Origin: Phycisphaerae bacterium
GTDB taxonomy: Bacteria; Planctomycetota; Phycisphaerae; UBA1845
Direction of reading: 5' to 3'
Assembly: GCA_963666835.2 (NCBI GenBank)
Contig: CAXXGO010000006.1
Span: 1,504,001-1,568,000 of the forward strand
DNA: 64,000 bases
The notes beneath the pieces were generated by a model, which saw nothing but the letters and a program-made list of their open reading frames with translations, did not search any database and was not told the origin of the DNA. The position numbers were made by a program, and so were the translations under genes. Of this stretch, positions 18,956-44,399 are shown piece by piece (position 1 is the first letter of the stretch; every line of letters begins with the position of its first letter).

Positions 18956-20110
18956 ATGATCTATCTCGACAACGCCGCGACTTCCTGGCCGAAACCCGAC
19001 GGTGTGAATGAAGCGATCACCCGGTTCCTTTGCGACGTGGGCGCCAACCCGGGACGTAGCGGCCACCGACTTGCCAACGAGGCCGAACGTATGCGCTTCG
19101 ACGCCCGCGAGGCCATCGCAGCGCTCTTTGGCCTTTCAGACCCGTTGCGAATCGTCTTCACACCCAACGCCACCGCGGCGCTTAACATCGTGATTCAGGG
19201 TCTCTTGCCGCCTGGTTCCCATGTCGTTGCAACCGGCATGGAGCACAACGCGGTCATGCGACCGCTCCGCATGATGGAGCAACGTGGTGTGTCGATCAGC
19301 ATCGCACCATGTGGGTGCGATGGCACCATGCGCGCATCGAGTGTTGACGAGCTGATTCGCCCAGACACTCGCCTCATTGTTGCGAACCACGCTTCAAACG
19401 TCAGCGGTACTCTGCTGCCCATCCGTCAGGTTGGGGATGTTGCCAGCGCGCGCGGTATCCCGCTTCTCGTCGATGCCGCCCAGACGGCCGGTTGTGTGCC
19501 GATCAACCTTGGCGCCGACAACATCGACCTTCTTGCCTTCACCGGTCACAAGGGGTTACTGGGCCCGACCGGCACCGGCGGCTTGGCCTTTCGCGACGAA
19601 TTTGACATTGGCCGCCTTCCTCCGCTGATCTACGGTGGAACCGGCAGCCGATCAGAGCACGAGGTACAACCCGACTTCCCACCGGATAAGTACGAGGGTG
19701 GCACATCCAACATTCTCGGGTTAGCTGGTCTGGCGGCCAGTGTTCGCTACGTCCTGGATCGCGGTGTCGAGGCCGTCCGCGCCTATGAGGCGGGGCTCAT
19801 TGGCCGGTTGATCGACGGGCTGGCCCGCATCCCGCGCATCACCATTGTCGGACCGTGCGACCCCGACAGACAGACCGGGATCGTTTCCATCGTGATCGAC
19901 GGCATGCTCTGCTCCGAGGCGGCTTTGGCCATGGACGAGCGGTTCGACATCATGTGCCGCCCGGGTCTTCACTGTGCACCGCTGGCTCACAGATCACTCG
20001 GCACTCTGCCGGACGGCACGGTTCGCTTTGCTCCCGGGCCGTTCACAACTGAGGGTGAGATTGACCAGGCTATCGCCGCCGTAGCAAAGATCGCCGGGGG
20101 CGACACATGA
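18956..20110 (+). CDS. PLP-dependent class V aminotransferase (cysteine desulfurase/selenocysteine lyase-like)
   Basis: MIYLDNAATSWPKP, EHNAV, DAAQTAG, TGHKGLLGP.GTG and RPGLHCAP. Confidence 0.9.
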   Translation: MIYLDNAATSWPKPDGVNEAITRFLCDVGANPGRSGHRLANEAERMRFDAREAIAALFGLSDPLRIVFTPNATAALNIVIQGLLPPGSHVVATGMEHNAVMRPLRMMEQRGVSISIAPCGCDGTMRASSVDELIRPDTRLIVANHASNVSGTLLPIRQVGDVASARGIPLLVDAAQTAGCVPINLGADNIDLLAFTGHKGLLGPTGTGGLAFRDEFDIGRLPPLIYGGTGSRSEHEVQPDFPPDKYEGGTSNILGLAGLAASVRYVLDRGVEAVRAYEAGLIGRLIDGLARIPRITIVGPCDPDRQTGIVSIVIDGMLCSEAALAMDERFDIMCRPGLHCAPLAHRSLGTLPDGTVRFAPGPFTTEGEIDQAIAAVAKIAGGDT

Positions 20111-20328
20111 ATAAGTATGCCGTCATCCTGGTCCACAGCACCAGCCACGCCATCCAGGCGGAGCGCGTGCTGAAGAGGGCCAACCTTCTCGTCAAGCTGA
20201 TTCCGACGCCGCGGCACCTCAGTAGCGACTGTGGCTCGGCGATTCGCATCGACGCTGCGGACCAGGAGGCCAGCACTGCAGTGCTGAAGCAGGCCGGCGT
20301 TCCGATTCAGCGAGTCGAACCTCTGTGA
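20107..20328 (+). CDS. DUF3343-like putative Se/S carrier protein
   Basis: STSHAIQAE, LIPTPRHLSSDCG motif; ATGA overlap with the upstream gene. Confidence 0.8.
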   Translation: MNKYAVILVHSTSHAIQAERVLKRANLLVKLIPTPRHLSSDCGSAIRIDAADQEASTAVLKQAGVPIQRVEPL

Positions 20329-20343
20329 CAGTGGAACCTTAAC

Positions 20344-21402
20344 ATGAACGCGAACACGCCAATACGACTGACACAGCTGACAACGGCCGCGGGGTGAGCC
20401 GCCAAGATGGCGCCTGACGCGCTGGCGCAGGTACTGCGCCCCCTAGCCGGTATGTTCTCGGTCGATCAGTTCCCCCAGCTTCTGGTTGGGTTAGGGGGTA
20501 CCGACGATGCAGCCGTGTACAAAGTCACGGATGACGTGGCTCTCATCGCCACTCTCGACTTCTTCACTCCGATTGTCGATGACCCCTACCAGTACGGCGC
20601 CGTCGCGGCCACCAACGCCCTCAGCGATATCTATGCCATGGGAGGCGAGGTTGCGATTGCTCTGAACATATGCTGCCTCTCCGAGTGCCTGCCGGTTGAC
20701 ATCATCAGCGAGATCCTGCGTGGCGGAGCTGACAAGGTCCACGAGGCTGGCGGGGTCCTCGCGGGCGGTCATTCCGTTGACGATAAGGAGCCCAAATACG
20801 GCCTGGCCGCGATCGGCTTTGTCCATCCAGACCGGGTGCTTACCAAGAACGGTGCCAGGCACGGCGATGTTCTCGTGCTCACCAAACCGCTGGGCGTCGG
20901 CATCATCAGCACCGCCTTCAAGGCCGATCATGCGCGTCCTGAGCACATGACGGCGGCCGTCGAATCCATGCTCAGGCTCAACCGCACTGCGTCGCAATTG
21001 CTTCAAGCACATGGCGCCCGTGCCTGCACTGACGTCACCGGTTTTGCTCTCCTCGGCCATTGCTCTGAGTTGGCCGAGAAGAGTGACGTGTGCCTTCGCA
21101 TTCATGCCACTACCATACCTTTCCTGCCGGGCGCCGAAGAATATGCCGACAGCTGGCTGTTTCCCGGCGGCACTGCGCGCAACAAGCACGCATATCAATC
21201 GCGCGTTCGCGTGGCCGACGGCGTCATCGAAGAAGTCGAACAGTTGCTCTACACGCCGGAGACCTCCGGCGGCCTGATCGCGACGATCCCGGCAGACCGG
21301 CTCGATGACCTGAAGTCCGCCTTCGACGCTGCCAGGCACCCCCTGTGGGTGATCGGCGAGGTGAGCGCCGCCTCCGATCATCACATCGAGATCATTCCTT
21401 GA
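20344..21402 (+). CDS. selD: Selenide, water dikinase (selenophosphate synthetase), predicted selenoprotein with Sec at codon 18
   Basis: ATG 20344 reads MNANTPIRLTQLTTAAG-TGA(20395-20397)-AAKMAP, in frame with ORF 20407..21402 (DDAAVY, DFFTPIVDDP, NALSDIYAMGG, TDVTGFALLGH, ETSGGL); the TGA sits at the catalytic Cys/Sec of the G[C/U]xxK motif. Confidence 0.93.
20424..20440 (+). promoter_or_regulatory. Candidate bacterial SECIS hairpin
   Basis: GGCGCAG-GTA-CTGCGCC perfect stem with a G-initiated loop about 33 nt after the in-frame UGA. Confidence 0.65.
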
Positions 21403-26652: not shown

Positions 26653-27519
26653 CTAGCGGCGACGGCGAAGCAGGCTCAGGCCGCCCAAACCGAGCAGCAT
26701 CAGCGTAGCGGGCTCCGGCACAACGGCCAACCCAGCGAAACCGTCGGAGAAGATCGTGCTATTGAAATTCCCAATCTTCGTGGCGACTCCGGTGTAGGGA
26801 TCGAACGAATAGAGCTCATTCGAGCCCGGAGCATTCGCGTCACTTATGGGGCCGCCCGTGGCGAAGAACCCGTAGTCACTGCCCAAAGCCATGCCGCCGA
26901 TCCCGCCGAAAACCGGTTCCGTGTAGGTGGTTATCGTGGAGGAGATCACTCCCGTTGTCGGATCGATCTCAACCAGCGAATTTGTGTAGCGATCGAGCCC
27001 GACCAACACGCCATCGTCGCGCCAGCCTAGTCCGTTGACGTCGCGGCGTACGCTGCTCATGTTGTCGAAGAAACCTATTTGCGTGCCGGCTCCGGTCGTC
27101 AAGTCCAGAGAGAGCAGCCTGGGGTACGTAACCGGTCCGAAATTGGTCGCATAGGCCGTGCCGTCTGAACCGAAGGCCAACGATCCTTCATATCCAGTCA
27201 GGCGGCCGGTGTCGAGATCGAGAACCTTTGTAGCGAGAGCGGTTGTCGGATCGATGGAGTACAACTGGGCATCCGTCGTTATCCCGTAAAGGATGCCGTC
27301 GGGTGACATCTCCAACGCCCCGAGATTGTCCACGCCGGTGTATCCGATTAGAGTGAGCGAGGCATCAGCGGTCGAAATGCTGAACAGCCTTCCGGTATCC
27401 TGCTCAACCCCAACGAGGTCGACCTGCGGGACCGGACTGCCTTGCACCACCGTGGGAACTAGCAGTGCCACGCACGCTAGCGCGAAAACCTGCGTACAAA
27501 CAGAAATGGACGGCTTCAT
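26653..27519 (-). CDS. PEP-CTERM exosortase-target surface protein (beta-propeller-like)
   Basis: Signal peptide; repeated LYSIDPTT / LVEIDPTTG blades; C-terminal VPEPATLMLLGLGGLSLLRRRR. Confidence 0.92.
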   Translation of the reverse strand: MKPSISVCTQVFALACVALLVPTVVQGSPVPQVDLVGVEQDTGRLFSISTADASLTLIGYTGVDNLGALEMSPDGILYGITTDAQLYSIDPTTALATKVLDLDTGRLTGYEGSLAFGSDGTAYATNFGPVTYPRLLSLDLTTGAGTQIGFFDNMSSVRRDVNGLGWRDDGVLVGLDRYTNSLVEIDPTTGVISSTITTYTEPVFGGIGGMALGSDYGFFATGGPISDANAPGSNELYSFDPYTGVATKIGNFNSTIFSDGFAGLAVVPEPATLMLLGLGGLSLLRRRR

Positions 27520-28518
27520 CAGCTCTCCCCTTGTTCAATTATCCAAATCGACCATCGAGACGCGACACTTTCCCCGCCGCGTGCCAAAGTGAGGACCGGA
27601 GCACCCGCGCACAACCCACCGTGACGAATCCGATCCGGTATCTTTTATACGCCTGCCATCGGCGCACGTCAAGAACCAGCGGGCTCGCTCGTTATCCGGA
27701 ACAACCCTCGTAACGGTATTATGGCACCTTGGGCCCCCTTTTGCAAACCCCAGGAGAGGGCGGCCGCCGAAAATCACGGGCCGACGGAGGACGAAGCGCC
27801 CCGGCCGCTGGACAAACGCGTCCGGATTCAGCGGCGGTTGGCGCTCGCAAGGCGTACGAAGTCCGTCTTTGGGATCCGGAATCTCGGAGTATCCGAGACC
27901 ACCCCCTACGGCGGGATCAATGTGGAATCGGGCTATGTTCAACGCCGGATGCGCAGATTCTGCAGCGCGTCGATCACCTGCCGACGCGGGAGGTGTGCTG
28001 AGGCTGGTTGGCGGAGACCGGTGCATTCAGGGGCCAACATGCCCGGTGACTTCCGGTTGTTGAGTCGGCCTCACTCGTTGTCTCTCAGGGTTACGTCGTA
28101 GTCAAAATCCCGCCATACGCCCGCGTTATTCGCCGAACTGTCGGATGAATGCGAGGTGACAATTGCTCACTAGTTTACCCTCATGCGCGCGTTGTAGTGG
28201 AGAAGCTGGCACGGAACCTGAGCCGCGCGCTTGACACCGCTTGCAGGTTCGCCGATGCTTCAGAGGAAGATCGAGGGTCTTTCTGTCCGTCGATTGGCCA
28301 CCCTGATCGGGGAATGAGCCGGTTCGGAACGTAATGCTCGTTGGAGAATGGGCTCCCCGGTTGATGTTCGAGGCGATCAGGTCAAGTGGATTACGCAGGG
28401 CGAGTTGGCGGATGACGCATTCAATGGTGAGCGACGTGCTTGTGTCGCTGACCCGGTACCGGGAGACCGGTTCGGCGCAGGCAGTTACTACGACTCTGAA
28501 CATAGCGAGGTCATTGAA

Positions 28519-29625
28519 ATGAGGACTACACACGGAAAAGGCATCGTTGCCGTACTGATTGCTGGAGCGTTGCTGTTCAAAGCCGGCTGCGGTAGTGGCG
28601 ATTTCCTGGGTCTGGAGGACTACCAGCGAGATTTGCTGGTCGGCGGTGTCGCGGCCGCCTTGCTGCTGGCGAACCAGACCGGCACTGCTGATGACGCTAC
28701 CGATCCGGAAGCCGGACAAGCCTTGCCAGGCCCCGAGGGAGAACAGGGCGTCCCCGGCGAGCAAGGCGAGCAGGGTGAGCAAGGAGCGCAGGGTGCGCAG
28801 GGCGAGCAAGGTGAGCAAGGAGAGCAAGGCGCGCAAGGAGAGCAGGGCGAACCGGGGCCGGCCGGTCCGCAAGGAGAGCAGGGCGAGCAAGGAGAGCAGG
28901 GCGAGCAAGGAGAACAGGGGCCCGTTGGGCCGACCGGTCCCACCGGTCCGAAGGGCGATCCCGGAGAAGACGGGACCGCTCTGTTCAGCGTCTTCATTGA
29001 CGACTTCTTCACCATCGCCGGGAGCACGCCCGGAGATTTGCCCATGGCGACGATATCAATCTCCGAGCCCACGCTCGGTCCTCCGAACCCGGATACGGGC
29101 GAGCCGGGAGTGATCGCCTATCGCATGGCTATCCCAGAGCATTACGCGGAAGGGAACGACGTCACCATGCGTCTGTTATTCCATCGGACCGGCCCAGGCG
29201 CCGAGGGCTGTCTGGTCTTCACCCTGGATGCAGCCCGCCTGGTCAACGGCCAGGATGTCTCACCGTACGACGGCAGCGCCCGCTACGTGAGGATCGACCT
29301 CAACCAACCGGTTGTGGTCGAGAAGTCGATCTCCGAGACCCTTCTCGACAACGGCAGCGAGGGCGTATACCTGGTCGTCGATCTGCCGATAAACGACGGT
29401 GTCGACCAGCCGGGCCTGGAGCTGGGCGGCGGGCTCGCGGCTACGGATATGCTCGCCTTCGAGCTTGCGGTCTACACGACACCGGACCGCACCTGGCACG
29501 ATGGGGGGCATTACCATCTGCTCGGAGTTGAGTTCTTCGAGTCGGCTGCGGGTGAAGCGGAGCTGGTGGGCGCCACCATCTTCACTTCTGAGCAGGATGT
29601 GATGTGCTTCAACGAAGGGTTCTGA
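28519..29625 (+). CDS. Collagen-like (Gly-X-Y) putative lipoprotein
   Basis: Start MRTTHGKG; lipobox-like LLFKAGC; 27 uninterrupted GXY triplets at 28729-28971, followed by a globular C-terminal domain. Confidence 0.8.
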
Positions 29626-29685
29626 TTCAGTAGCATCGGACGCTCCTAGACTCGCCGGTAGTCAGGAACGGCCAAGGCACGATTC

Positions 29686-29725
29686 AAAAGCCCGCCCGGG
29701 TCCTTCGGATCCGGGCGGGTTTTTT
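29686..29725 (+). terminator. Intrinsic terminator (possibly bidirectional)
   Basis: AAAA-GCCCGCCCGGGTCC-TTCG-GATCCGGGCGGG-TTTTTT. Confidence 0.85.
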
Positions 29726-30099
29726 GTCAGGTCTTTCTTCCGATTGCCGCTTCGGGAATCGGAGGGAATCTGTGAAAGGACGCGCCCCAAGTCTTCGAAG
29801 GCGACCCTCGCCACCGTAGCCGGGGATGGATTCGGAGCCCATACCCGCCTTCAGCGGGCGAGGCCCGATTCCGGCCTTACGCCCGTGCTTACGCGTGGCG
29901 ACCGTTTCCACCCCGCGCAGCTTCCGATAATACGATCCGACCCGGCCCGCCGTTTGCACGGGTTTTCGCGGTGCCGCATACGCCGACCGGACTCTTGCGA
30001 GCCGCTCGCCCGCTCGCGGCGGGTTACCGGTGATTTGCTGCTACGTAGACGCTCTCGTAGAATGCGGAACTCGACGTTCGAGACAGGAGTAACCCGGCG

Positions 30100-32064
30100 A
30101 TGACGATCGCTTTCAAACCGTATAATGCGATGACTCCCGAGGACTACGCAGACATCGGACTGCGCTGCGGGCTGGAGGTTCACCAACAGCTTCTCACGAA
30201 GACCAAGCTGTTCTGCCGCTGCCCCGCCGGTCGATATAGCGAGGCGTTCAACGCCGAGATCCTCCGGCACATGCGCCCGACTCTCTCCGAGCTGGGAGAG
30301 TATGACGGCACGGCCTTGATGGAGAAGAAGACGCGGAAGAACATCTATTACCGCATCCACCACGATACGGTATGTACGTACGAGTTCGACGACACCCCGC
30401 CGTTCTTCATCGCAGACGACGCTCTCGATTACGCCCTGCAAGTCGCAATGTTGCTTCGCTTGAACATCGTCAGCGAGTTGCACATCGCCCGTAAGCAGTA
30501 CCTGGACGGGTCGATTCCAACAGGGTTTCAGCGAACCACTATTGTGGGAGTGGACGGCTGGATCCCGTTCAAGGACCGCAAGATCCGGATCAGACAGCTC
30601 GGATTGGAAGAAGACGCCTGCCGAGAGGTCTCGGACATCGGCCACGACCGAGTCTACCTGACGGATCGGCTGGGCATGCCGCTCATCGAGCCGGTGACAG
30701 AGCCGGACATGCGCACCCCGGAAGAGGCGGCCCAGGTCGGAGAGATTCTCCGTCGCCTGTGTCGTAGCACCGGGAACGTCCGCACCGGGTATGGAGCCGG
30801 AAGACAGGACGTCAACGTCAGTGTGACCGGCGGCACCCGTATCGAAATCAAGGGCGTGCCCCAGCTCTGGCGGATTCCTCGCCTGGTTTATAACGAGGCT
30901 CGTCGGCAATGTTCCCTGCTGGCCATCCGCGACCAGTTGAAGGAGCGGGGCATCACGCCGGACACCTTCAAACACTACGTTGACGATGTTACTCGCATCG
31001 TCGCCAAGACCCAGTATGAGCCGATGCGGGCCGCCCTCCAGCGGGGTGATCGAGTGAAGTGCATAGTCCTGAAGGGCTTCGCCGGAATCCTCAATGAACC
31101 CACACAGGAGCACACGACGTTTGCCAAGGAATTCTCCGATCGCGCCCGCGTAATCGCCTGCCTGACGCGCCTGCCCAACATCATCCACTCGGACACGGCG
31201 TCCGAGTCCCTCTACGGCAAGGATTGGCAGAAGCTGCACCGCAAGATGAAGGCGGACCACGGCGATGCCCTGATCCTCGTCTGGGGCGACGAGGCGGACA
31301 CCCGCTGCGCCGCGGAGGAAATCGCCATTCGGGCGAAGGAAGCCACAATCGGCGTGCCCAGCGATACCAGACAGGGGCTCAAGGACGGCACTAACGGCTT
31401 CGAACGGGTCCTGCCGGGGGCCGATCGCATGTACCCGGACACGGATCTGCCGCCGATGGCGATTCCCAGCGAGCGCCTCGAACGGATTGCGGCCCGGCTT
31501 CCCGAGTATGTCTGGGATCGCGAACAACGATACCGATCAATGGGGCTGGGGGAGGAGCACATCGCCACGTTGTGCCTCTCGCGCAAGGCCGGTCTGTTCC
31601 AACGTCTCGTGGATGAGCTTAAGTGCGCTCCGACCTTCGCCGCAGTCGTTATCTGCGAGCGGCTCAAGGCCTTCCGGCGGGACGGCTTGGCCCTCGACCG
31701 GCTTGCCGACGACACCATCTTCGAGGTGTTCGAAGCCCATACGACCGGCCGGCTTGCCCGCGAAGGCGTGGTCGACGCTATCAGGAAACTCCTGACGAGC
31801 CGAAGTGATCCGGCCGCGGAACAGCTCACCGTGAGCGACATTCTTCAGCAGTACGCCCCCGTAACGGAAGATGAGTTGGCCGCCGACGTAACCCATACCG
31901 TTGCCCAATTGGATCGTTCCAACTTCAGCTCCGCGGATCAGGTTCGGCGCCATGCGATGGGCCTGTTGATGAGCAAGTTCCGCGGACGCGTGGATGGGAC
32001 GACGGTTGCCCGCCGGATCGAGCAGGTTCTGCCTCCCGAAGACGCAAGGGTCGCTGCTTCGTAG
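30100..32064 (+). CDS. gatE: Glu-tRNA(Gln) amidotransferase subunit E (archaeal type)
   Basis: GLEVHQQL..KLFCRCP, RKQYLDGSIPTGFQRT, LEEDACR, DRLGMPLIE, RQDVNVSV.GG.RIEIKGV and LPGADRMYPDTDLPP, plus a large central insertion characteristic of GatE rather than GatB; 654 aa. Confidence 0.92.
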   Translation: MTIAFKPYNAMTPEDYADIGLRCGLEVHQQLLTKTKLFCRCPAGRYSEAFNAEILRHMRPTLSELGEYDGTALMEKKTRKNIYYRIHHDTVCTYEFDDTPPFFIADDALDYALQVAMLLRLNIVSELHIARKQYLDGSIPTGFQRTTIVGVDGWIPFKDRKIRIRQLGLEEDACREVSDIGHDRVYLTDRLGMPLIEPVTEPDMRTPEEAAQVGEILRRLCRSTGNVRTGYGAGRQDVNVSVTGGTRIEIKGVPQLWRIPRLVYNEARRQCSLLAIRDQLKERGITPDTFKHYVDDVTRIVAKTQYEPMRAALQRGDRVKCIVLKGFAGILNEPTQEHTTFAKEFSDRARVIACLTRLPNIIHSDTASESLYGKDWQKLHRKMKADHGDALILVWGDEADTRCAAEEIAIRAKEATIGVPSDTRQGLKDGTNGFERVLPGADRMYPDTDLPPMAIPSERLERIAARLPEYVWDREQRYRSMGLGEEHIATLCLSRKAGLFQRLVDELKCAPTFAAVVICERLKAFRRDGLALDRLADDTIFEVFEAHTTGRLAREGVVDAIRKLLTSRSDPAAEQLTVSDILQQYAPVTEDELAADVTHTVAQLDRSNFSSADQVRRHAMGLLMSKFRGRVDGTTVARRIEQVLPPEDARVAAS

Positions 32065-32132
32065 ATCAAAGGTGAGAGAGTCGATACGGATCACGGGACA
32101 ATTGCGGTGGTCCATTTGCTCAGGAAGACAAC

Positions 32133-33515
32133 ATGAGTGACACAGCCCAGGGTTATCGCGGGATCGGAAAGGCCACGCTCGACAAGTACGACGTCTCCGT
32201 TTGGAGCGATGTCGAGGTGAACACCGATAACGGCAGCTTCCGCGGCATTATCCTACCGCGCTCAGAGACGGCCGACGAAAAGCACATCGTCTTGAAACTC
32301 ACCAGCGGCTATAACGTCGGCGTCGCGGCCGACTCGGTCACGAAAATCGTCCAGCACGGTCGGCGCGAAGCCCACTACAAGATCCCCGAGAAGGAGTTCC
32401 CCTACGACGCGGCAAAACCGAACGTCACCCTTTTCGGCACCGGCGGCACCATCGCCAGCCGTTTGGACTACCGCACCGGAGCGGTGATTCCCGCATTCTC
32501 TCCCGGTGAGTTGTACGGCTCGGTCCCCGAACTGGCGGACATCTGCAACCTCACCACCGAGAAGCTCTTCGGGGTCTTCAGCGAGAACATGGGTCCGCAG
32601 CAGTACATCCGTCTCGCCGAGCGAATCAAGGAGGTCATCGAGCAGGGGGTCAGCGGTATTGTCATCGGGCACGGTACCGACACCATGCACCACACCGCGG
32701 CCATCCTGAGCTTCATGGTGCAGGATTCACCCGTTCCCATAGTCATGGTCGGGTCTCAGCGTTCGTCCGACCGGCCCTCATCGGATGCGGCTATTAATCT
32801 GATAAACGCGGTCAAGGCGGCCGCGACGAGCGACATCGCCGAGGTCAGCGTATGCATGTTCGGGCCTACTTCGGATCAGTACTGTCTTTTGCACCGCGGC
32901 ACGCGCGTCCGCAAGATGCACTCCAGCTACCGATCGACTTTCCGAACGATTGGTGACATTCCTCTGGCAATGATCGATCCGGAGAAGATCGAACTTCTAC
33001 GAACGGACTACAAGCGTCGGCGGGATGATCGCAACGTGAAGATCAATACGGCCTTCGAAGAGAAGGTCACGATTCTCTACTACTACCCAAATATGATGCC
33101 CGACTTGGTCGATGCCATCGTCGACAAGGGCTACCGCGGTATTGTCATCGCTGGGACGGGCCTGGGCCACGTCAACCGTCCGCTCTATGCGGCGCTCGAG
33201 CGCGCCACTGCCAAGGGCGTACACATCTACATGACGGTTCAGACTTTGTGGGGTTACGTGCAGATGTACGTGTACGAAACCGGACGGGAGATTATGGGGC
33301 TGGGCGTGGTGCCGGCCGCCAATATGCTTCCGGAAGTCGCCTTCATGAAACTGTCCTGGGCGCTGGGGCAGTCCGATGACCGCGACGAGGTCCGCCGGAT
33401 CATGCTGACTCCGGTCTGCGACGAGATCACCGAGCGGGAGCCCTATAACGGCTACCTGATTTTTCAGGGCGAAATCCCCGAGGTGCAGGACTTCCTTCGC
33501 ACTATCAAACGCTGA
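32133..33515 (+). CDS. gatD: Glu-tRNA(Gln) amidotransferase subunit D (type I asparaginase-like, archaeal type)
   Basis: N-terminal GatD domain (VLKLTSGYNVGV), TGGTIASRLDYRTGAV, HGTDTM, GSQRSSDRPSSDA and HRGTRVRKMHSS. Confidence 0.93.
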   Translation: MSDTAQGYRGIGKATLDKYDVSVWSDVEVNTDNGSFRGIILPRSETADEKHIVLKLTSGYNVGVAADSVTKIVQHGRREAHYKIPEKEFPYDAAKPNVTLFGTGGTIASRLDYRTGAVIPAFSPGELYGSVPELADICNLTTEKLFGVFSENMGPQQYIRLAERIKEVIEQGVSGIVIGHGTDTMHHTAAILSFMVQDSPVPIVMVGSQRSSDRPSSDAAINLINAVKAAATSDIAEVSVCMFGPTSDQYCLLHRGTRVRKMHSSYRSTFRTIGDIPLAMIDPEKIELLRTDYKRRRDDRNVKINTAFEEKVTILYYYPNMMPDLVDAIVDKGYRGIVIAGTGLGHVNRPLYAALERATAKGVHIYMTVQTLWGYVQMYVYETGREIMGLGVVPAANMLPEVAFMKLSWALGQSDDRDEVRRIMLTPVCDEITEREPYNGYLIFQGEIPEVQDFLRTIKR

Positions 33516-33968
33516 TTTCGTTCGGTGCGGCGGGAGGATCAACCGTCGCTACGCAGTCACGTTCACGATCGGGACGTTACTATCGGAAGAGCCCTCCGCG
33601 GAGTATTGCCCCGCGTCTAATGCGGAGGTGCCCCGGTCGTTTTGAGCGTGAGCGGAAAGCGTCATCGCTAAGCCCATAAAAATCGTTTCGTTCGAAATTC
33701 GCGTGAGCGCGCGCCTACGATTCTTCGTTTAGTTACCTTGAGGACTGCCGGCAGAAGGCTTTCCGTAAGTAGCATGAGGGGAGAGGGGTCGCGATTCCGC
33801 GGCCTCAGGTGCGCAACCGCCTGCCTGCAGACTGCCGTCCTTACGTAGCCCATAGCCCACGGGGTGAACTCCGGGGACTCCGTCTAAACACCTCGACCAG
33901 GTGTCGCGCGCGAGGTCTGCGCGCCGGGATCCCGGTCCATCTCCCCGGCAACCGAGCGAGGTGACACG

Positions 33969-34580
33969 ATGAACCGCAGAAACGTCAGAACGGCCCTGGG
34001 ATTGTTGACGACCGTCGCAGCTTTTGGAGCCCCCGCCCTATCGGCGCGGGCGGCAATCCCCGCCGCCCGAGACGTTTACTACTACGTCTACTCCATCCCC
34101 GAGGATCTTACGAGTGACATTGCTCTGTCTGTACGGCTGAGCCTCACCGCGGTCGAGGTGGAGGGTTCCGCGGTCGGATGGGAGATCACCTACGCCGAGT
34201 TTCGCGAACCGGGAACTACATCGGAGGACGACGTAGTCTGGTACGCGGAATACCCGGCGGTCGACACGGCCGACGGTCTGTGGTGGGTTGAACACGCCGA
34301 TCCGTCCGCCCCGGTGCTTGCCGAATTCGCCACACCGCCGCGCTTGGTGGGCACGGCCACCGCAGTCGATTCGCAATATGCCGACCTTGAATACGATCTG
34401 CAGGGCGCCGTTGCCGTGTCCGAGACGGAAACAGAGACGAAAAGCACCAAGACTGCGCTGACTTTCAATATCCACGCCGCCGACACCGGAGAGACGATGT
34501 ACACCGGCGTTGCGGAAACGGTCAGCACAGGCGAGGACGAGCCGCCTACGATGGCCGGTTCGGGGACGGAGGCGGACTAA
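33969..34580 (+). CDS. Secreted hypothetical protein
   Basis: GAGG RBS, signal peptide ending ARA, acidic beta-rich body. Confidence 0.65.
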   Translation: MNRRNVRTALGLLTTVAAFGAPALSARAAIPAARDVYYYVYSIPEDLTSDIALSVRLSLTAVEVEGSAVGWEITYAEFREPGTTSEDDVVWYAEYPAVDTADGLWWVEHADPSAPVLAEFATPPRLVGTATAVDSQYADLEYDLQGAVAVSETETETKSTKTALTFNIHAADTGETMYTGVAETVSTGEDEPPTMAGSGTEAD

Positions 34581-34634
34581 CTCGACAACGCGAGTGTGCC
34601 TGTCAACGAGTTGCCAGGCCCGCTACGTGTAACG

Positions 34635-36728
34635 TCAGTCCGTACGGTTGGAAAACTCGGCCTCGCGCCTAGCGAGATACTCCAATACGGCGCGGACATC
34701 GCGGAGCGTCGTCGACACATCCCGGCTGCGCGGAGCAGACTTGCCGGACTCGACAAGCCCAAGCACACGTCGCTCCGCCCGTTCCAGGAGGTCGCGCGCA
34801 AGCTCGTAGAGTTCGGGATCGTGCAAGAACAAATGCCCGATGGCTATCCTTGCCTCGGTCCTAGACAACTCTATCGTATAGTCGAGTGAATCCGGATCGG
34901 CCTGGTAGAGCATCTGCAGGATCTCGCGTGCAGCAGAGTAACATTGGATAGCCTCACCAAATGCCCGCGTTCCCTGGCGGCTCTCGCCATCTTGACCGAG
35001 CGCGACAGCTAGCTCGAAACTCAAGCTGGCATTATCAGGATCAGCGCCAAGCAACGCGCGACGAGTCGACACTACTTTCTGAAGGTCTCGCCGTGCGAAC
35101 TCCCACTCGTCACGAGCCATCGCCAACCGCGCGCGCGACGCGAGCGCGTCGGCTAGCGACCGCTGCCACTCGAGGTTCTCCGGCTCTCTCCGCACTAACT
35201 CCTCGGCCAAGGACATGAGACTCTGAAAATGCGGCTCGGCCTCATCCAGCTTCCCTTCTTCGAGCAGCAAGGTCCCGATACGGTGGTGCGCGCCAATGCG
35301 ATAGCGATCAACGACCGGGTCACCCGCAACGTCATCCCCGGCGAGTTCCAGGGCCTTCTCGAACATCGCCATGGCCTGTTCCAGACGACCCTCGTCGCGT
35401 TCTACTGCACCGAGTTTCAGATACGAGCCCATCTGGAGTCCCGCCTGGTAGATTCGCGCTTGGGTTTCAGCTCTCTGCCGTTGGGTTTCCGCTCTTTGCC
35501 ACAGAATCCCCATGCCCACCGCGGACCCGATCACCAGCAAGAGAAACGCGGCGGCAATCGCCACCTGCAAGCGAAAGCGGCGGATCGTTTTGCCGAGCAC
35601 GTAAAACGCATTCGCCGACTTCGCCTCCACGGCATCACCGGCCAGGTAGCGGCCGAGATCTTCCGCGAGCGCCGCAACCGACTGGTACCGGTCCCCCTTA
35701 TCCTTCTCCAGGGTCTTCAGGAGAATGGCTTCGAGATCGCCACTCATCTCCCGGCGGGTGAAGCCTCCGTCCAGACTCTCGTCGCTCAAGGCCTTCCGCG
35801 GTGGAATCGGCTCTCGGCCCACAATGTTGTTCTGCACGTCGAGCGGCGCCCCCTCCACCGGGTACGGGAAGCTGCCGGTGAGTATCTCGTATAGCACCAC
35901 TCCAAGGGAGTAGATGTCGGATCGAACATCCACATCGTCTACCGCGCCGCGGGCCTGCTCCGGGCTCAGATACGGTAGGGTGCCCACAACCTGCCCGGTC
36001 ATAGAGATGCTGGTGGATGAGCCGCTCCCGCCGGTCGGCGAGTAGTCCTTAGCCAAGCCGAAATCCAGAATGTGCGGTTCGCCGTCGTCATCCACCAGAA
36101 TATTCGAAGGCTTGAGATCACGATGGATGATCCCCCGCTGGTGGGCGAAACTGACCGCGCGGCAGATCGTGGCGAAAAGCTCCACCCGCGCCGTCCCACT
36201 CAACCCATGGAGCAGGATGTAATCGTCGATCGACATCCCGTCCACGTACTCCATCGCGAAGTACGGCCGACCGTTGACTATGCCGCTGTCGTAGACGGTG
36301 ACGATATTAGGATGCCGCAGCCGGGCGATCAGCTCGACCTCGCGGGAGAAGCGGTGCCTCTGTTGACCGGTGGCGAAGGGCCCGTCCAACAGAACCTTGA
36401 TTGCAACGGTTCGATTGGTGGAAAGCTGCATTGCCTTGAAGATGACGCCCTGCCCCCCGCGACGCACGCGCTCGATCACCTCATACCCGGCAAGACTCTC
36501 GCCCAGCAACATGGCATCGGTCGGTCCGTCGACATCGCCCGACTCCGGCTGCGCGGTGGCACACTCGGCGGCAACCTCGATCGCGCGCAGAGTGGCCAGC
36601 CGTCGACGCAACTCGGGCAGCAGGTGGCGATGTTGTCGCTCTACGTCTTCGAAGGAAACGTCTTCACCGGCCTGGCGACGACGGAGCACGTCCTCGACGA
36701 TGCGGTCAATCTCGGCGTTTCGATCCAT
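34635..36728 (-). CDS. Hanks-type Ser/Thr protein kinase with TM segment and C-terminal TPR-like region
   Basis: [29 protein letters not shown] and DIYSLG; start taken at MDRNAE. Confidence 0.92.
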
Positions 36729-36792
36729 GACGCTACGGCTCCCCGCGGGCCGAGCCCGGACGAGCGGTACCACCGGTCCATCGGCGGATTCC

Positions 36793-37422
36793 TCAATCGC
36801 CGGACACTTCCTCCAACGGAAGCGCATCGCTGAAGAACTTCTCCGCGGACCCGAGATGCGTACGCAATTCGCGCAGGCCGTGGAAGATCAGACTGTGAAC
36901 CGCCGGAACCGTCCGCTGCATCAGCCGGGCTATCTCGGAAAGAGGACGCCCCTCTATATGACGCATCCGCACCGCCCGGGCACGGTCCGCCGATACGTGG
37001 CCCAGTGCCGCGGTAACGGCAGCAGCGGCCTCCTTGGCGGAAGTTACCCGGCTGGGGGTCACCCCGGGCGCCGCCGCCCCGGCCACCAGGTCGATGATTG
37101 ACGAGTAAGGGTCACTCCCGCAACCCTGCACCGGAACCCCACCCCCGCGTTTGATCGCCAGGGCAATCCGGAGCGTATCCACCGTTTTGCGGTTGGCAAT
37201 CGTGGTCAGCCAATGTTCGAAATCCGCGTCTCGCCGCCCTCGGAAACCCCCGGCCGTGCGAAACGCCGCAATCCAGACATCTTGCAGAACGTCATCCGCA
37301 GAAACTACGCTTCGCAGCCCGCGCGGGATTTTACCGTCGATGTACTGACGCAAACGCTCCGCATGGGCAAGGAGCATCTTCTGCATGGCCGCCTGCTTGC
37401 CGGATTTTGCGGATAGGATCAT
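36793..37422 (-). CDS. ECF sigma factor (planctomycete kinase-associated type)
   Basis: SADDVLQDVW, WLTTIANRK, TPSR motif and RMRHIEGRPLSEIARLM; lies directly upstream of the Ser/Thr kinase; start uncertain. Confidence 0.8.
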   Translation of the reverse strand: MILSAKSGKQAAMQKMLLAHAERLRQYIDGKIPRGLRSVVSADDVLQDVWIAAFRTAGGFRGRRDADFEHWLTTIANRKTVDTLRIALAIKRGGGVPVQGCGSDPYSSIIDLVAGAAAPGVTPSRVTSAKEAAAAVTAALGHVSADRARAVRMRHIEGRPLSEIARLMQRTVPAVHSLIFHGLRELRTHLGSAEKFFSDALPLEEVSGD

Positions 37423-38964: not shown

Positions 38965-41900
38965 TTACGGACACGTACTCGGCACGGTCTCGCCGGTCCA
39001 TCCATCGAACTCGTGAGCACCGTTGAACAGATCGATCAGCCGCAGAATATCCTCGGCGTTCGTCGCTCCGCTACGATTGATGTCGGTTTGCCACGTATCG
39101 CACGTTCCGGAGTTCAGACATCCGACCAACGCCGTGAGGTCCGCCGCGTTGACGACCTTGTTCCCGTCGACGTCGCCCGGCAGGAAGAAGAAGCTTCCGG
39201 TCTGCGACCCCCCAGCCATAGGCTGGTAGGTGATCTCGATCATCTCACCGGCCGGGACGGGGTCATTCAGCACGATTGCGTACGAACCGCCGAGGTCGAC
39301 GATGCTATCGATGCTGTTGGCACCGCCGCCGGTCTGGCAGATCGACCAGCAATCCGTTCCCAAGCTCGGGGCGGTGACCTCGAAGGTATCCCAACCCTGC
39401 GCCGTCGCTGCGTTCATGAGCGGATGCGGCTGACGGGCGTCGACCGCTCCGTCCGTCGGATCGACCCAGGTCACCACGCCGTCCCCACACTCACACGTGT
39501 CGGGAATGCCGTTCGTGTTGGTGTCGGGGCTGCAGTTGTGTGTGCAGAAGCCGTGTCCGGCGTTGCACGGGCTGTGAGTCACGCACACTTCCACGGACTC
39601 GCACGTTTGACCAGTGGGACAATCGCTACTGGTGGTGCAATACTTGCCGGTACCCGAGCAGGTCTTGCAATTGACGTCGTAGCTACACCTATGCCCCGTG
39701 CGGGTGTCGCCGCGCATGCACTCCTTACAGATCACCTCCGGATCGATCGTGATCTGACATTCGTCCGGAATGCCGTTGCCGTCACAGTCTTCCGACACGA
39801 TCCCGTCACCATCCGGATCGCTCGGATTAACGTCGCACTCGTCCGGGTTGCCGTTGAAGTTGCAGTCTTCAGAACGCCCGTCGGCGATATCGAAGAGGTC
39901 CGGCAGGAGGTTGTTGTTGCAGTCGTCCGGCACACAGGCGATCGTAAGGTCGCCCGCCGGCTCCGTGCCATACTCTCCACCGATGCGGATCTTACATATA
40001 TCACCGAGCATTACCGGTGCGACAACCGAAGAGGCCGGAGCGCAATCGCTGTCGCAGGTTGCCGGCTCACAGTCGTCATCCTTGATGCAGTGGACGGCCA
40101 CGGTCTCATTACCATCCACAGTCCATCCGCAGCTCGGCCAGTATGCTTCGCATTCGGCGCCGTAATCGCAATCGTCCTTTCCATTCGGGCAATAGGTAAC
40201 CGATCCTTCGGTGCAACGCATCTCGAAGACCGCGGTATCGCAACTCTCCGATTCGTTACCGTCACAGTAACCCGCCGTGCACTGTGCATCGGTAAAGCAG
40301 GCTCCACCCGAAACGCTGCACTCGGCCTGCAACCGCAGATCGCACGTAGACGAGCCCGGGCAATCATCGTCGCTGCTGCAGAGGATTCCCAAACCGGTAC
40401 AGCCGAGGACGCAATCGTCCGCGTCCTCGCACGCCTGGCCACCGATCGAGCACGTCTTGTTCAATTCAGACTCGTCATTCATGGCCGATGCGACGGCGTC
40501 AGGCGGGCAATTCTCCTCACCGAAGGGAGCGCAGTAAACCGCAAGCGTCGTGCCGGGATCCTCGTCCGCCGGCGTCAGGCCGCAAGTCCGCACATCCAGG
40601 TTCCCGATGCAGCTTGCGGCATGCTCGAACCAGATGTCGTTCATCATCGCCGGCATGTCGTCCTCGCCCGGACAGTCAAGATCCGCGTACTGGAGGCTGA
40701 ACGACGTTGTGCCTGCTGACACACTCTGTGCGAGTTCACACAGGCTGCCACTCGGCGGGAGCGACGAGTGCGGACAAGGCGACTCCACTTTTAAAACGAA
40801 CTCGCCTTTGGCATCCTCGCCGGCCAACGTGCTGCCTGCGAGGAGAATATAATAGGTTTTCCCATAGGAAAGACCGGTCACGCAGATGTCCGACATGGTT
40901 CCTTCGCTACCGCAGCCTGGGGTATCATCGTCGCACCCGATGATCTCCAAAGACTCGCACGCCGCCTGCGGACTCGAATCGTCCCCGGCCTCGTAAATCT
41001 GAAGCAGGGAATCCTGCTTGAATGAGGCCGTACTGCACGTGTTGATCCTGGCGCTGCTGTGAACGGCCGTGAACTTGTACCAGATATTGCCGACCCCCAG
41101 ATTGTCCAACCCGGCCTTATTGCAGCAGAAGCCCGGATCGTCCGCATAGGTCTTGGCGCCGCTGTTGTTCGCGACCGCCAATCCCTCGCAGGATTCCGAA
41201 ATCTGTGTACACGCTTCTTCGGTATCCTCATCCAGGATCTCGATTTCAACGGCGCCCACATCTTCATCCTCCGGATCCCAACAGACGTCGTTAAGTGGCG
41301 GATATAGGCACTCCAGATCGGCCATACTGTTCGCCCGGCTGGCGCACCCTCTATCCCATCCGCCGTCGAGCGCGTTGCAGCAATACGGGTCTATACCACA
41401 AACCGCGTTGCAGCAACGCAGGTTTCCGCAACCGGCCCGCATCAGGCAGCGAGGCAACTGACCCGGCGCCGTGTAGCACATTCGTCCATCCGGGCAATCG
41501 GAATCGCCGTTGGGGCAGAAGATGAAATCTGCCGGTCCGTCCATGCAGTCGCCCTCGGCATCGTAGCACTGGAAGATCATGCACTCATCGTCCGGATCCG
41601 TGCCACAGAACGTCCCGGGTGCCCAATGCCCGCGGCTCAGGTCGCATTCACCCGGCACCACATCACCCACGCACGTTCCCGCGGTTTCGCCCGGCTCATT
41701 GCAGTCTGCATCAGTCATACAATCCTGCTGTTCCTTGGAACCACCCACGCACTCTCCGAGAATGCCGCATGTGCGGGAACCCGGGCAGTCGTCGTCGGTT
41801 GTGCACAAGACGGGGTCGTAGTTCGGGGCTCGCAGAGCATGGCAATCATCGTATGTAAGATCGTTGCAGCTACCGTTCGGCATGCAACACTGGTGCGTTC

Positions 41901-43449
41901 CGCAGGGCGGGTCGAACTTGTTTTCCGCACAGGTGGCATCCATGATCCAACGGGCCGACGGGCAGCCGATGACGGGAACATCGTCCCGGCAAATCGGATC
42001 GCGGCCGGGCTGCTCCGGCTGGTCCGGACAGCAGGCTCCGGTCGGAGCGTCACCGCGGCAATAGACCGCGATGTGGGCAATACCGGGAACGCCGGACCCG
42101 GGACGCACTAGTTCCCAGGGACCGGGATTCTCAGGATCGGTAACGTCCTGCATGCCGAGCCACACATCGCTGTTTCCGGCTTGGTTGCGCCCGACAATCG
42201 GTACCGCTACGTTACCCATGTTCGGCAACCAGTTGATATAGAACGGCTGGTCGTTCGTGTTGAGGAAGTGCCCCTCATCATACAGGAATCGGGCTACTGA
42301 CAGACTTCCCTCACCGCGCCCCTCGTAGACTTGGTGCATATCCTGGACATCGTCGCGTTCCGGCCAGGCGAGGTCGACGTCCAGGGTGAAGTCGCCGGCA
42401 TTGCCGATTACCCCGATCTCAACCGCGCTGATCTCGCACGAGATCGGCTGGGGAGTGCCCGATACGCCCGCGGAGCTCACAATCAGCTCGATATCGTCGG
42501 ACAGCAGAGTATGCGTGGGGTCCGGCGCCATCCAGAACTCGCCGCTATTCGACACCGCCCGGTAAGCCAGAAAGTGCGTCGGGCAGTAGTCGGGATCCTC
42601 GTCATCGAGAGTCCCGGGTACGGAAACCTGCGACCAGAAGCTGGAGTGCGGGAAGCGCGGATAACCACCGAGCCACGAGGTGCAGGGAGCGTACACGTGA
42701 TGGTACGAGTCCGCAGAATAACCCAATTCCGCCGCGTTTCCGGCAATCACGCCGGCCGTGTTGCTGTCGAAGCGATACTGCAGCCAGATCGTCGGGGGCA
42801 ACTGGGGCAGATTCTGCTCACAGATCGACGAGTCCGAGCAGTTCTGGTGTGAAACCAGGCACTCCGTCCCATTGGCGCAAATGCCGATGTCGCGGAAATC
42901 GACTTCGAGCTCGTGAGTCTCTTCGATGTTGTCCTCAAGGCTGTCGAACGTGAACTCGGTGCCCGCACCGAAGAGGTTCACGGCGTTGCGAAGACCCGGG
43001 CACCGATCCCAGACACTGACGGAGACGGAGAACTCATCGTCCCCGTCCTCAACTCCGCCGTTGACCCGGAATATGATGCGTTTCACACCGCACTCTGACA
43101 CCGCATCGGAACCGATATCGTCCGCGATCGGGATTCCGGTACCGGGGGCATATAGAAAGTCCCCGTAGGTGTTGCTGTATACTAACTTCTCGTCGGGATC
43201 ATCATCCCGCGTGGACGCGATCCCCGAGGATCCGTCGGCGTAGTGCCGAATCACCCTGGTGGTCTCCGGCAGTGGAGTAAGCGTACCTCTGACCCGGCCG
43301 CTTGCCCCGGCGTCTGCCATCAGGGCAGGAGCCGCCCCGGCAGTTACGCAAACTTGGTTTGGAACCGGATCCGCCGCATGAGCCCCTACCATCACAGCAG
43401 CGAAGACGCACACCGTTAAGCTGCACGTCCAAAGCATTCTTCTTCGCAT
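38965..43449 (-). CDS. Large (~1,490 aa) secreted Cys-rich protein with Ca-binding DCNxNGxPDEC repeats and C-terminal dockerin-like domain
   Basis: GAGG RBS; signal peptide MRRRMLWTCSL...AHA; many CxxDxDC repeats; GDVDGNKVVNAADL and DINRSGATNAEDIL. Confidence 0.85.
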   Translation of the reverse strand: MRRRMLWTCSLTVCVFAAVMVGAHAADPVPNQVCVTAGAAPALMADAGASGRVRGTLTPLPETTRVIRHYADGSSGIASTRDDDPDEKLVYSNTYGDFLYAPGTGIPIADDIGSDAVSECGVKRIIFRVNGGVEDGDDEFSVSVSVWDRCPGLRNAVNLFGAGTEFTFDSLEDNIEETHELEVDFRDIGICANGTECLVSHQNCSDSSICEQNLPQLPPTIWLQYRFDSNTAGVIAGNAAELGYSADSYHHVYAPCTSWLGGYPRFPHSSFWSQVSVPGTLDDEDPDYCPTHFLAYRAVSNSGEFWMAPDPTHTLLSDDIELIVSSAGVSGTPQPISCEISAVEIGVIGNAGDFTLDVDLAWPERDDVQDMHQVYEGRGEGSLSVARFLYDEGHFLNTNDQPFYINWLPNMGNVAVPIVGRNQAGNSDVWLGMQDVTDPENPGPWELVRPGSGVPGIAHIAVYCRGDAPTGACCPDQPEQPGRDPICRDDVPVIGCPSARWIMDATCAENKFDPPCGTHQCCMPNGSCNDLTYDDCHALRAPNYDPVLCTTDDDCPGSRTCGILGECVGGSKEQQDCMTDADCNEPGETAGTCVGDVVPGECDLSRGHWAPGTFCGTDPDDECMIFQCYDAEGDCMDGPADFIFCPNGDSDCPDGRMCYTAPGQLPRCLMRAGCGNLRCCNAVCGIDPYCCNALDGGWDRGCASRANSMADLECLYPPLNDVCWDPEDEDVGAVEIEILDEDTEEACTQISESCEGLAVANNSGAKTYADDPGFCCNKAGLDNLGVGNIWYKFTAVHSSARINTCSTASFKQDSLLQIYEAGDDSSPQAACESLEIIGCDDDTPGCGSEGTMSDICVTGLSYGKTYYILLAGSTLAGEDAKGEFVLKVESPCPHSSLPPSGSLCELAQSVSAGTTSFSLQYADLDCPGEDDMPAMMNDIWFEHAASCIGNLDVRTCGLTPADEDPGTTLAVYCAPFGEENCPPDAVASAMNDESELNKTCSIGGQACEDADDCVLGCTGLGILCSSDDDCPGSSTCDLRLQAECSVSGGACFTDAQCTAGYCDGNESESCDTAVFEMRCTEGSVTYCPNGKDDCDYGAECEAYWPSCGWTVDGNETVAVHCIKDDDCEPATCDSDCAPASSVVAPVMLGDICKIRIGGEYGTEPAGDLTIACVPDDCNNNLLPDLFDIADGRSEDCNFNGNPDECDVNPSDPDGDGIVSEDCDGNGIPDECQITIDPEVICKECMRGDTRTGHRCSYDVNCKTCSGTGKYCTTSSDCPTGQTCESVEVCVTHSPCNAGHGFCTHNCSPDTNTNGIPDTCECGDGVVTWVDPTDGAVDARQPHPLMNAATAQGWDTFEVTAPSLGTDCWSICQTGGGANSIDSIVDLGGSYAIVLNDPVPAGEMIEITYQPMAGGSQTGSFFFLPGDVDGNKVVNAADLTALVGCLNSGTCDTWQTDINRSGATNAEDILRLIDLFNGAHEFDGWTGETVPSTCP

Positions 43450-44399
43450 CGTGTCCACCTCTGTTCCTCTGAATAACCCAACGCGAACTAGACAGCCCCA
43501 GCCCAGGCCCACCACCGAGCCGAATCCCAGAAACTACTCTGGATTACCTCACCTGGAGCCCCGCACGAGCCGCGCAATAACCAGCCCGCGCTTCGCAAAC
43601 CCCCTCAGTTTGCAATGCCCGACATCCCGTCGGACCTTGCATGAAATTACCCCACAATCCGACCCGCAATCTGCCGCACAACGACAGCATTACGTCCGAA
43701 AACGAACATTCCTCTTTCCCTGACGCCCGGGTATATAAACCCAGGCCACGGCCATAGTACCGATGAGGCCGCAAACAAACAAGACCTTATAGGCAAAACG
43801 GGGGAAATTTAAGTCCCCGCTTCGTGATAATGGGTGCTCTACGTCGTCCTGCTACCCTTGTCTTTCGGTCGGGACCGGCAAAATCCGCTCGATAACCTCC
43901 GCGAGAGCCAGCGGACACAATCGGGCGGGGCGGCCAACAGCCGACGACGCTCGGCAAACCTAAGTCGGCACGCTGGAGCAACCATCAACCCCATAAAGGC
44001 CCGTGCCACCGGCTGCAAAGGCCCCCAGCCCCTGCGAGAACCGGATTATCACACCTGATATTAGGCCTGCCCGTTCGGGGCAGTAAAGCCGAAAAACCGC
44101 CCTCGCCGACATTCCGTTGTCAGTGTACTAATGCAATAGGAGGGCGAGGTCTGCACGGTTGAGAACCGGACTTCCGGTGAAAGGAGTCAGCCGAGAGTCC
44201 CTCACGAGGATGCCGCCGAAAGTACACCTTCGCCCCAACGCACAACACGATCACCCCGCCAATCGCCCAACCTGCCCGAAAACAGGTATTTGCGAACGAT
44301 CGGCACACGTTGATAGGCGCACTTCGACCCATCACGGTCGACGATCGCAGCGCGCCACATCATCTATTGATCGGCGAGCTACGATCATCTCCGTAACAC

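Follow-up and report, generated by a model that had tools for sequence, protein, structure and literature searches.

The Glu-tRNA(Gln) amidotransferase GatDE is stated to occur only in archaea in passages of two papers (PMC9499178, PMC2811023), which also use this restriction in arguments on the early evolution of glutamine coding. In a further passage, GatE is described as carrying a short positive loop in place of the 3-10 turn (residues 183–186 in Staphylococcus aureus) with which GatB of the GatCAB amidotransferase reads the U1-A72 pair, and GXXAXGX is given as the tRNA-contact motif of the GatE tail (PMC2811023). Here, we describe a gatE–gatD gene pair from a Phycisphaerae bacterium of the Planctomycetota, located in a stretch of 64,000 nucleotides (hereafter the window; positions 1,504,001–1,568,000 of contig CAXXGO010000006.1, assembly GCA_963666835.2). 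Genome data contradict the archaea-only claim, with GatDE frequent in several phyla of bacteria. The present operon is a clean example on a near-complete chromosome and belongs, as an ordinary member, to a large clade of bacterial GatDE. A first reading of the window, made from the letters alone (the sequence-only reading), had called the pair an archaeal signature and little-described. This holds for the literature only, where we found no bacterial GatDE, judging by titles and abstracts and including searches from 2013 on and with planctomycetes; it does not hold for the databases, which already name thousands of such bacterial proteins GatE, and as a single locus the window adds little.

Both open reading frames (ORFs; Table 1) exceeded the cut-offs of the NCBIfam equivalog models for their subunits. 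On NF003107 (cut-off 456) the gatE product reached 543 bits and on TIGR00134 (cut-off 320) 482 bits, whereas the best GatB model gave it 160 bits, under that model's cut-off of 338. Pfam matched PF02934 (GatB_N) over residues 22–460, split by the GAD insertion (PF02938, E 1.9e-8). The tail (residues 499–644) reached 23.8 bits on PF02637 and 23.4 bits on PF09424, both below the Pfam cut-off of 27; despite these weak scores, it aligns up to residue 641 with the archaeal GatE chains 1ZQ1_C and 2D6F_C, to which residues 15–641 align end to end (344 and 323 bits, respectively) and in which the GAD insertion also finds its matching region. The GatE cradle motifs GLEVHQQL, DGSIPTGFQRT, LEEDACR, RQDVNVS and RMYPDTD are all present. 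For the gatD product, NF003217 gave 515 bits (cut-off 310) and TIGR02153 gave 513 bits (cut-off 324), Pfam matched PF18195, PF00710 and PF17763, and the alignment with 1ZQ1_A (406 bits) and 2D6F_A (392 bits) is full-length. Within its motifs TGGTIASR, HGTDTM, RSSDRPSSDA and VRKMHSS, the stretches TGGT, HGTDT and VRKMH match those of both archaeal chains; we take these to hold the catalytic residues. Judged by these scores and alignments, the pair is a true GatDE and not a GatB beside an ordinary asparaginase. On this point the sequence-only reading, which had described a full-length gatE with a central insertion followed by a gatD with TGGT, HGTDT and RKMHS, proved correct.

Table 1. Position and make-up of the gatE–gatD locus in the window.
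Feature	Positions	Strand	Description
Upstream intergenic region	29626..30099	+	474 bases; presumed site of the operon's promoter
gatE	30100..32064	+	654 amino acids; cradle (GatB_N) domain, GAD insertion at residues 310–399, YqeY-like tail
gatE–gatD spacer	32065..32132	+	68 bases; no terminator-like site found within
gatD	32133..33515	+	460 amino acids; GatD_N plus asparaginase N and C domains; motifs TGGT, HGTDT, RSSDRPSSDA, VRKMH

To place this GatE, a HMMER pass was made over 1.84 billion cluster representatives, which returned 671 proteins at E ≤ 1e-30. The near-full-length rows show a step between 40–60% identity (at least 425 bits) and 30–38% identity (at most 391 bits). Of the 150 listed representatives, 115 were retained (35 fell outside 560–720 amino acids) and joined with the window, the host GatB and 14 named bacterial loci in a FastTree phylogeny of 131 rows. 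This tree contained one group of 51 rows (support 100) and another of 78 rows (support 99), with the representative P0158 falling between them. Of 30 representatives looked up, 9 yielded an organism name. All six named rows of the 78-row group are archaeal (Thorarchaeota, Odinarchaeota, Methanobrevibacter, Methanofastidiosum, Parvarchaeota and one labeled 'archaeon'), and all 16 named rows of the 51-row group are bacterial (the 14 loci, CSSED10-310 and Deltaproteobacteria). In an IQ-TREE analysis (posterior mean site frequency model, quick search) of 54 chosen rows rooted on three GatB sequences, the bacterial-type GatE clade was monophyletic (Shimodaira–Hasegawa-like approximate likelihood ratio test, SH-aLRT, 100), with P0158 as its sister (support 97) and the Asgard rows basal. 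Based on both trees, we firmly assign the window GatE to a single bacteria-only clade, apart from the named archaeal rows. This clade could derive from a transfer from an Asgard-like archaeon or represent a deep sister of all archaeal GatE. The nesting of the bacterial clade within archaea, beside Heimdallarchaeota (support 97), was not upheld by an approximately unbiased (AU) test: a tree constrained to keep all 24 archaeal rows in a single clade exceeded the tree of the free quick search by 7.17 log-likelihood units (p-AU 0.665). For this reason we claim no donor. Of the proposal of an old, ameliorated inter-domain transfer, the great age is supported, because the pair belongs to a clade common to many bacterial lineages, while the transfer itself is one possibility.

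The pair resides in a bacterial chromosome. Its contig is 2.67 Mb long and belongs to an assembly of 6.02 Mb in 7 contigs, which is 92% complete and 1.7% contaminated. The G+C content of the operon (0.60–0.62) is similar to that of the window (0.585–0.641) and of the contigs (0.60–0.61 each), and neighboring genes encode, among others, a PEP-CTERM protein, a collagen-repeat protein, an AMP-ligase, a Ser/Thr kinase with tetratricopeptide (TPR) repeats, an extracytoplasmic function (ECF) sigma factor, an HDOD protein and a dockerin protein. No mobile-element family was found by Pfam among the 14 neighboring proteins scanned. We also aligned public contigs to positions 27000–37000. They stem from four runs on two samples, covering two studies; one of the samples may be the source of the assembly itself. 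In both studies, single contigs span the upstream flank and gatE, and others span gatD and the downstream flank. Of the 15 variant positions listed for these 10 kb, 14 (X2) or 10 (X3) are different in the contigs of the second study, so the population sampled there is another strain. Chimerism is therefore excluded for practical purposes, and the bacterial context, host-like G+C content and lack of mobile-element scars noted in the sequence-only reading are confirmed.

The same genome encodes a complete bacterial set of enzymes for Gln-tRNA and Asn-tRNA. A glutaminyl-tRNA synthetase (GlnRS; 744 bits, cut-off 426) was found together with GatA (595 bits), GatB (466 bits) and a GatC encoded directly upstream of gatA, all above their cut-offs. 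Also encoded are an asparaginyl-tRNA synthetase (AsnRS; 454 bits, summed over two stretches), one bacterial-type glutamyl-tRNA synthetase (GluRS), one bacterial aspartyl-tRNA synthetase (AspRS) and four AsnB-type asparagine synthetase homologues above cut-off. Since GlnRS, AsnRS and GatCAB are all present, GatDE replaced nothing; it is a third route added to a complete set. Where the sequence-only reading had left open whether the pair replaced or supplements GatCAB and GlnRS, only supplementation stands, and an archaeal-type pathway with GatDE as the sole route to Gln-tRNA does not. The AsnRS gene itself (C6:1858421-1859905) carries its two model-matching stretches about 190 bases apart in one open frame; the match is likewise split in the closed chromosomes behind loci L036 and L048, which suggests an inserted segment.

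Among the 52 host tRNAs called by ARAGORN, U1-A72 and G73 occur in tRNA-Asn and in the two tRNA-Gln isoacceptors, CUG and UUG, while tRNA-Asp starts with G1-C72; no credible A1-U72 tRNA was found in this set. The sequence-only reading had offered a co-adapted tRNA-Gln as one possibility, which we examined in 30 relatives (14 gatE-plus, 16 gatE-minus). In all 30, tRNA-Gln(CUG) (L138-L167) has U1-A72, G2-C71 and G73. In 27 of the relatives, the UUG isoacceptor (L168-L197) combines U1-A72 with a second pair that is A2-U71 or G2.U71; in three gatE-minus genomes of one genus (L178, L193, L196) its first pair is the archaeal-like A1-U72. Hence no acceptor-stem feature of tRNA-Gln tracks gatE in these relatives, and a special tRNA-Gln accompanying gatE was rejected.

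Several peculiarities of the tRNA genes were noted along the way. In the host tRNA-Gln(CUG) (C6:688760-688834, L136), the second pair is G2-C71 and the third a G3.U70 wobble; this third pair is G3-C70 in 29 of the 30 relatives and A3-U70 in the remaining one. G3.U70 is the alanine identity element, and its occurrence here may reflect a transitional state or a sequencing error, or may carry a risk of mischarging. The host tRNA-Gln(UUG) (C6:1395007-1395078, L137), with A2-U71 and C3-G70, shares the family-wide non-canonical top of the stem, A2-U71 or G2.U71 followed by C3-G70, unlike the CUG isoacceptor, and charging of the two isoacceptors may follow separate routes. Both tRNA-Glu genes (C6:870715-870787 and C6:1115969-1116041) have a G1.U72 wobble as their first pair rather than G1-C72. 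Lastly, three over-long calls of 91–94 bases (C1:279033-279126, C1:1822143-1822234 and C6:1113519-1113609; Ala(CGC), Ala(UGC) and Thr(GGU)) may be false or insert-carrying.

In the host GluRS, a Gly (in 'AGF') is aligned to Arg358 of the Thermus thermophilus enzyme (in 'PRF'), a sequence proxy that has a one-residue indel beside the site. One cyanobacterial non-discriminating GluRS of solved structure also has Gly at this position. All 30 family rows (14 gatE-plus, 16 gatE-minus; the set leaves out G196, which had no GluRS match at the threshold) carry the same Gly, and a GluRS type that tracks gatE was thus rejected. According to a passage of earlier work, the R358Q exchange converts the Thermus GluRS to a non-discriminating enzyme (PMC2978374). 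As a proxy, the Gly suggests that the lineage is able to form Glu-tRNA(Gln).

Turning to the distribution of the pair, a scan of one genome per species gave 87 GatE relatives, 80 of which were kept. Most of these loci are labeled Phycisphaerae, Phycisphaerales or Planctomycetota (59–83% identity), the others Ignavibacteria, Melioribacteraceae, Calditrichia, Zixibacteria, Bacteroidetes or Lentisphaerae (45–58% identity), and three sit on closed chromosomes. An ORF search recovered GatE at 71 of the 80 loci and GatD at 58, with gatD directly 3' of gatE wherever it was seen. GatD is 67–89% identical across related loci, including those of bacteria labeled as different phyla, which implies long purifying selection. 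Five loci (L025, L035, L049, L052 and L063) have no gatD ORF in the roughly 6 kb of flank downstream of gatE, so that the two genes would lie apart in some relatives. None of the ten proteins flanking the pair in the window recurs in the 80 loci, where only generic kinase or TPR matches were seen (seven loci), and gene context thus offers no functional hint. In a collection of 5.8 billion proteins, we counted at least 8000 GatE matches at E ≤ 1e-20; the best 120 were all at least 62% identical, and many of these already bear the NCBI name 'Glu-tRNA(Gln) amidotransferase subunit GatE [Phycisphaerae bacterium]'.

Within the lineage of the host, the distribution is patchy. Among 150 other genomes sampled from the order, 36 had gatE, with 14/32, 4/32, 14/32 and 0/32 in four well-sampled families. 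For other genomes of the class the number was 6 of 150, all of them in the window's order (0/130 outside it), and for other genomes of the phylum 25 of 250 (13 families outside the class). In the order, 34 of 37 gatE matches are above the equivalog cut-off and free of internal stops. GlnRS, counted as present at E ≤ 1e-100, was detected in 134 of the 151 genomes of the order sample, namely 34/37 gatE-plus and 100/114 gatE-minus genomes, and the idea that gatE compensates for a missing GlnRS was rejected on these counts; of the three gatE-plus genomes that lack such a match, two have partial GlnRS matches. GatB was present in all five gatE-plus relatives tested for it.

Eight other gatE-plus genomes differ in their further routes. 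The three closed chromosomes were searched for GlnRS, AsnRS and GatA: all three were found in the one behind L048 (G526), AsnRS and GatA but not GlnRS behind L036 (G524), and GatA but neither synthetase behind L039 (G525). GlnRS, AsnRS, GatA and GatB were all found in G283 (labeled Lentisphaerae) and G285 (Bacteroidetes). GatA and GatB were not found in G282 (Calditrichia; completeness unknown), which has GlnRS and AsnRS, nor in G284 (Zixibacteria; only 2.1 Mb), which has GlnRS and a weak partial AsnRS match of 156 bits. In G281 (Melioribacteraceae), AsnRS but no GlnRS was found, GatA contains two in-frame TGA codons and GatB lies in two frames; we rejected this genome as a case of GatDE being the only route, since its gatE and gatD ORFs are shortened as well and the defects were attributed to assembly frameshifts. 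There is accordingly no single complement pattern, and GatDE occurs with every combination of the other routes.

We also compared the parts of GatE that contact tRNA. The cradle motifs GLE.HQQL, DGS...GFQRT, LEED..R, RQD.N.S and RMYP.TD are alike in the 51 bacterial-type and 78 archaeal-type rows. The first-pair loop, located via residues 183–186 of S. aureus GatB, reads VKRGLGTIRQD in the archaeal consensus, VRRGIGAARQD in the bacterial-type consensus and VRTGYGAGRQD in the window. At the GXXAXGX position of the tail, MAFFT aligned ADQVRRH of the window (0/3 fixed positions) and PEARLRY of the bacterial-clade consensus, whereas pairwise HMMER alignment placed RRHAMGL of the window there (2/3 fixed positions), so that the loss of this motif is uncertain; even in the 78 archaeal-type rows it is only moderately conserved (G 52%, A 61%, G 26%). 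Because these two tRNA-contact motifs differ by clade, altered tRNA recognition in bacterial GatDE is plausible.

We consider the window GatDE to be, on balance, probably a working accessory second Glu-tRNA(Gln) amidotransferase adapted to bacterial tRNA. The data establish the pair's identity, its intactness and residency, its redundancy in the host, its clade and its patchy distribution, whereas its activity, its substrate and the reason for its retention are what we infer here. By analogy with the solved archaeal enzymes, GatD, as an asparaginase-type amidase, would free ammonia from Gln or Asn, while GatE would phosphorylate the side-chain carboxyl of the Glu on tRNA(Gln) and then amidate it to Gln. 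The single host GluRS, being without the arginine that makes the Thermus enzyme discriminating, would supply the Glu-tRNA(Gln), and the departure of the tRNA-contact elements from the archaeal consensus would be as expected for an enzyme reading a U1-A72 tRNA(Gln). It would work beside GatCAB and GlnRS, not as their substitute. In its favor we count, besides the family scores, full-length alignments, retained motifs, recurring gene order, GluRS Gly and bridged flanks described above, the genomes in which gatE is present and GlnRS was not found (the closed chromosomes behind L036 and L039, and G040) as well as the two metagenome-assembled genomes, G282 and G284, in which GatA and GatB were not found.

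Several observations weigh against this explanation. GlnRS, AsnRS, GatCAB and the four AsnB-type genes already cover every possible job of GatDE in the host. The gene is dispensable in the lineage, given that gatE was not found in 114 of the 150 other genomes of the order and that genus g6 is split, with one of its two genomes carrying it, and the presence of GlnRS does not track gatE (34/37 versus 100/114). The host tRNA(Gln) has U1-A72 and not the A1-U72 read by archaeal GatDE, and the tail motif is not kept in the MAFFT alignment. Moreover, the GluRS argument has the one-residue indel beside the site and a rule for Arg358 drawn from one enzyme to contend with, and the Gly does not tie GluRS to GatDE, as it is the same in gatE-plus and gatE-minus genomes. 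Finally, no RNA was among the seven public runs listed as matching positions 29600–34000 of the window (two studies; DNA or of unknown kind).

A more far-reaching possibility, which we put forward only tentatively, is that bacterial GatDE, rather than being a stray import from archaea, is an old, separately evolving lineage, possibly the sister of all archaeal GatDE; the tRNA-reading elements of the bacterial enzyme would have been re-tooled for U1-A72, and its substrate range may extend beyond Glu-tRNA(Gln). If true, this would end the standing of GatDE as an 'archaeal signature', and the amidotransferase repertoire of the last common ancestor would again come into question.

Alternatively, bacterial-type GatDE might have a shifted or widened substrate and act on Asp-tRNA(Asn), alone or in addition to Glu-tRNA(Gln), thereby providing tRNA-dependent asparagine. 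The 51 bacterial-type rows do not conserve the tail motif, U1-A72 and G73 are common to tRNA(Asn) and tRNA(Gln) of the host, and AsnRS and GlnRS were both not found in the closed chromosome behind L039. However, this genome without AsnRS still carries GatA, the MAFFT and HMMER alignments of the tail motif conflict, and the host has AsnRS, four AsnB-type genes above cut-off and GatCAB. The GAD insertion domain, which is the part that excludes tRNA(Asn), is retained too, and we regard this substrate shift as unlikely. About equally improbable, in our view, is that the pair is a surplus, near-neutral remnant of an old acquisition that is heading for loss and has little or no role in this bacterium. 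Such a fate would fit the patchy occurrence in the four families, the full redundancy in the host and the unconserved neighbors across the 80 loci, but both ORFs are intact with all catalytic motifs retained, 34 of the 37 matches in the order pass the equivalog cut-off without internal stops, and the identity of GatD among different phylum labels speaks for long purifying selection.

A role outside translation, as a regulated Gln/Asn amidase or as an amidotransferase acting on a non-tRNA acceptor, appears very improbable: while it could account for the otherwise unexplained redundancy with three translational routes, and while the subfamily model for type I asparaginases still gives GatD 385 bits, GatE keeps all of its tRNA-binding parts (cradle, GAD insertion, helical region and tail) and no conserved partner gene points to another pathway. 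The idea of an assembly or binning artefact, in which archaeal DNA would have been fused to a bacterial contig, found no point in its favor and is refuted in practice by the position of the window at 1.50–1.57 Mb inside a 2.67-Mb contig of even G+C content, by the contigs of two studies, one from a different strain, that cross both junctions, and by the nearest relatives on bacterial contigs, including three closed chromosomes.

With regard to the remaining features of the locus, gatE and gatD abut or overlap in relatives, in contrast to the gap between them in the window. A 119-amino-acid ORF at 29744-30103, within the upstream intergenic region, is probably not a gene, because it lacks a Pfam match and none of the 80 related loci contains a relative of it. 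Scans of the operon region gave no promoter-like (sigma-70-like) site and one terminator-like site, which lies inside gatE; both counts were below their shuffle means and the scans are thus uninformative, the absence of a sigma-70-like site carrying no information for this phylum. Just 5' of gatE lies the gene for the collagen-triple-helix-repeat protein (28348-29625). Further downstream, two giant ORFs (38965-43515 and 44954-50920) encode 1516 and 1988 amino acids, the former with a C-terminal dockerin domain. At 18956-21402, a class-V aminotransferase gene adjoins an AIR-synthase-family gene; the genome has a tRNA-Sec, and the two may form a selenium-handling pair.

Of the known systems close to the window pair, the first is archaeal GatDE as solved from Pyrococcus abyssi (1ZQ1) and, with tRNA-Gln, from Methanothermobacter thermautotrophicus (2D6F), which shares with it the two subunits, their domain order, the GatD amidase motifs and the GatE cradle motifs. 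The window pair differs in that the window GatE falls in the separate bacteria-only clade (SH-aLRT 100) and reads DGSIPTGFQRT and RKQYL where archaeal GatE has the signatures DGSNTSGFQRT and RKTVI, and in that archaeal GatDE is paired with an A1-U72 tRNA(Gln), whereas the host has U1-A72 and, in addition, GlnRS and GatCAB. A GluRS–GatDE transamidosome is described for archaea in a passage of earlier work (PMC9499178), while the host GluRS is of bacterial type, so that an archaeal-style complex need not form here. Among archaeal sequences, the Heimdallarchaeota GatE P0158 (cluster member TET29438.1) is nearest to the bacterial clade (40% identity, 440 bits, versus at most 391 bits for the full-length rows of the archaeal-type clade). 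It shares the bacterial-type signatures DGSIPTGFQRT and RKQYL, but its loop, VKRGIGTIRQD, is of the archaeal kind and a G..A..G tail is retained. Its position as sister lacks robustness, as grouping it with the other archaea gives the better likelihood. The third system for comparison is GatCAB (S. aureus 3IP4 and 2DF4; gatC-gatA and gatB in the host), in which GatB shares the cradle domain and the YqeY-type tail with GatE. The two differ in that GatCAB uses the amidase-signature GatA, whereas GatDE uses the asparaginase-type GatD and has no GatC, and in that GatE carries the GAD insertion and, in place of the 3-10 turn of GatB, a short loop. GatCAB and GatDE would both be expected to use U1-A72 tRNAs in this cell.

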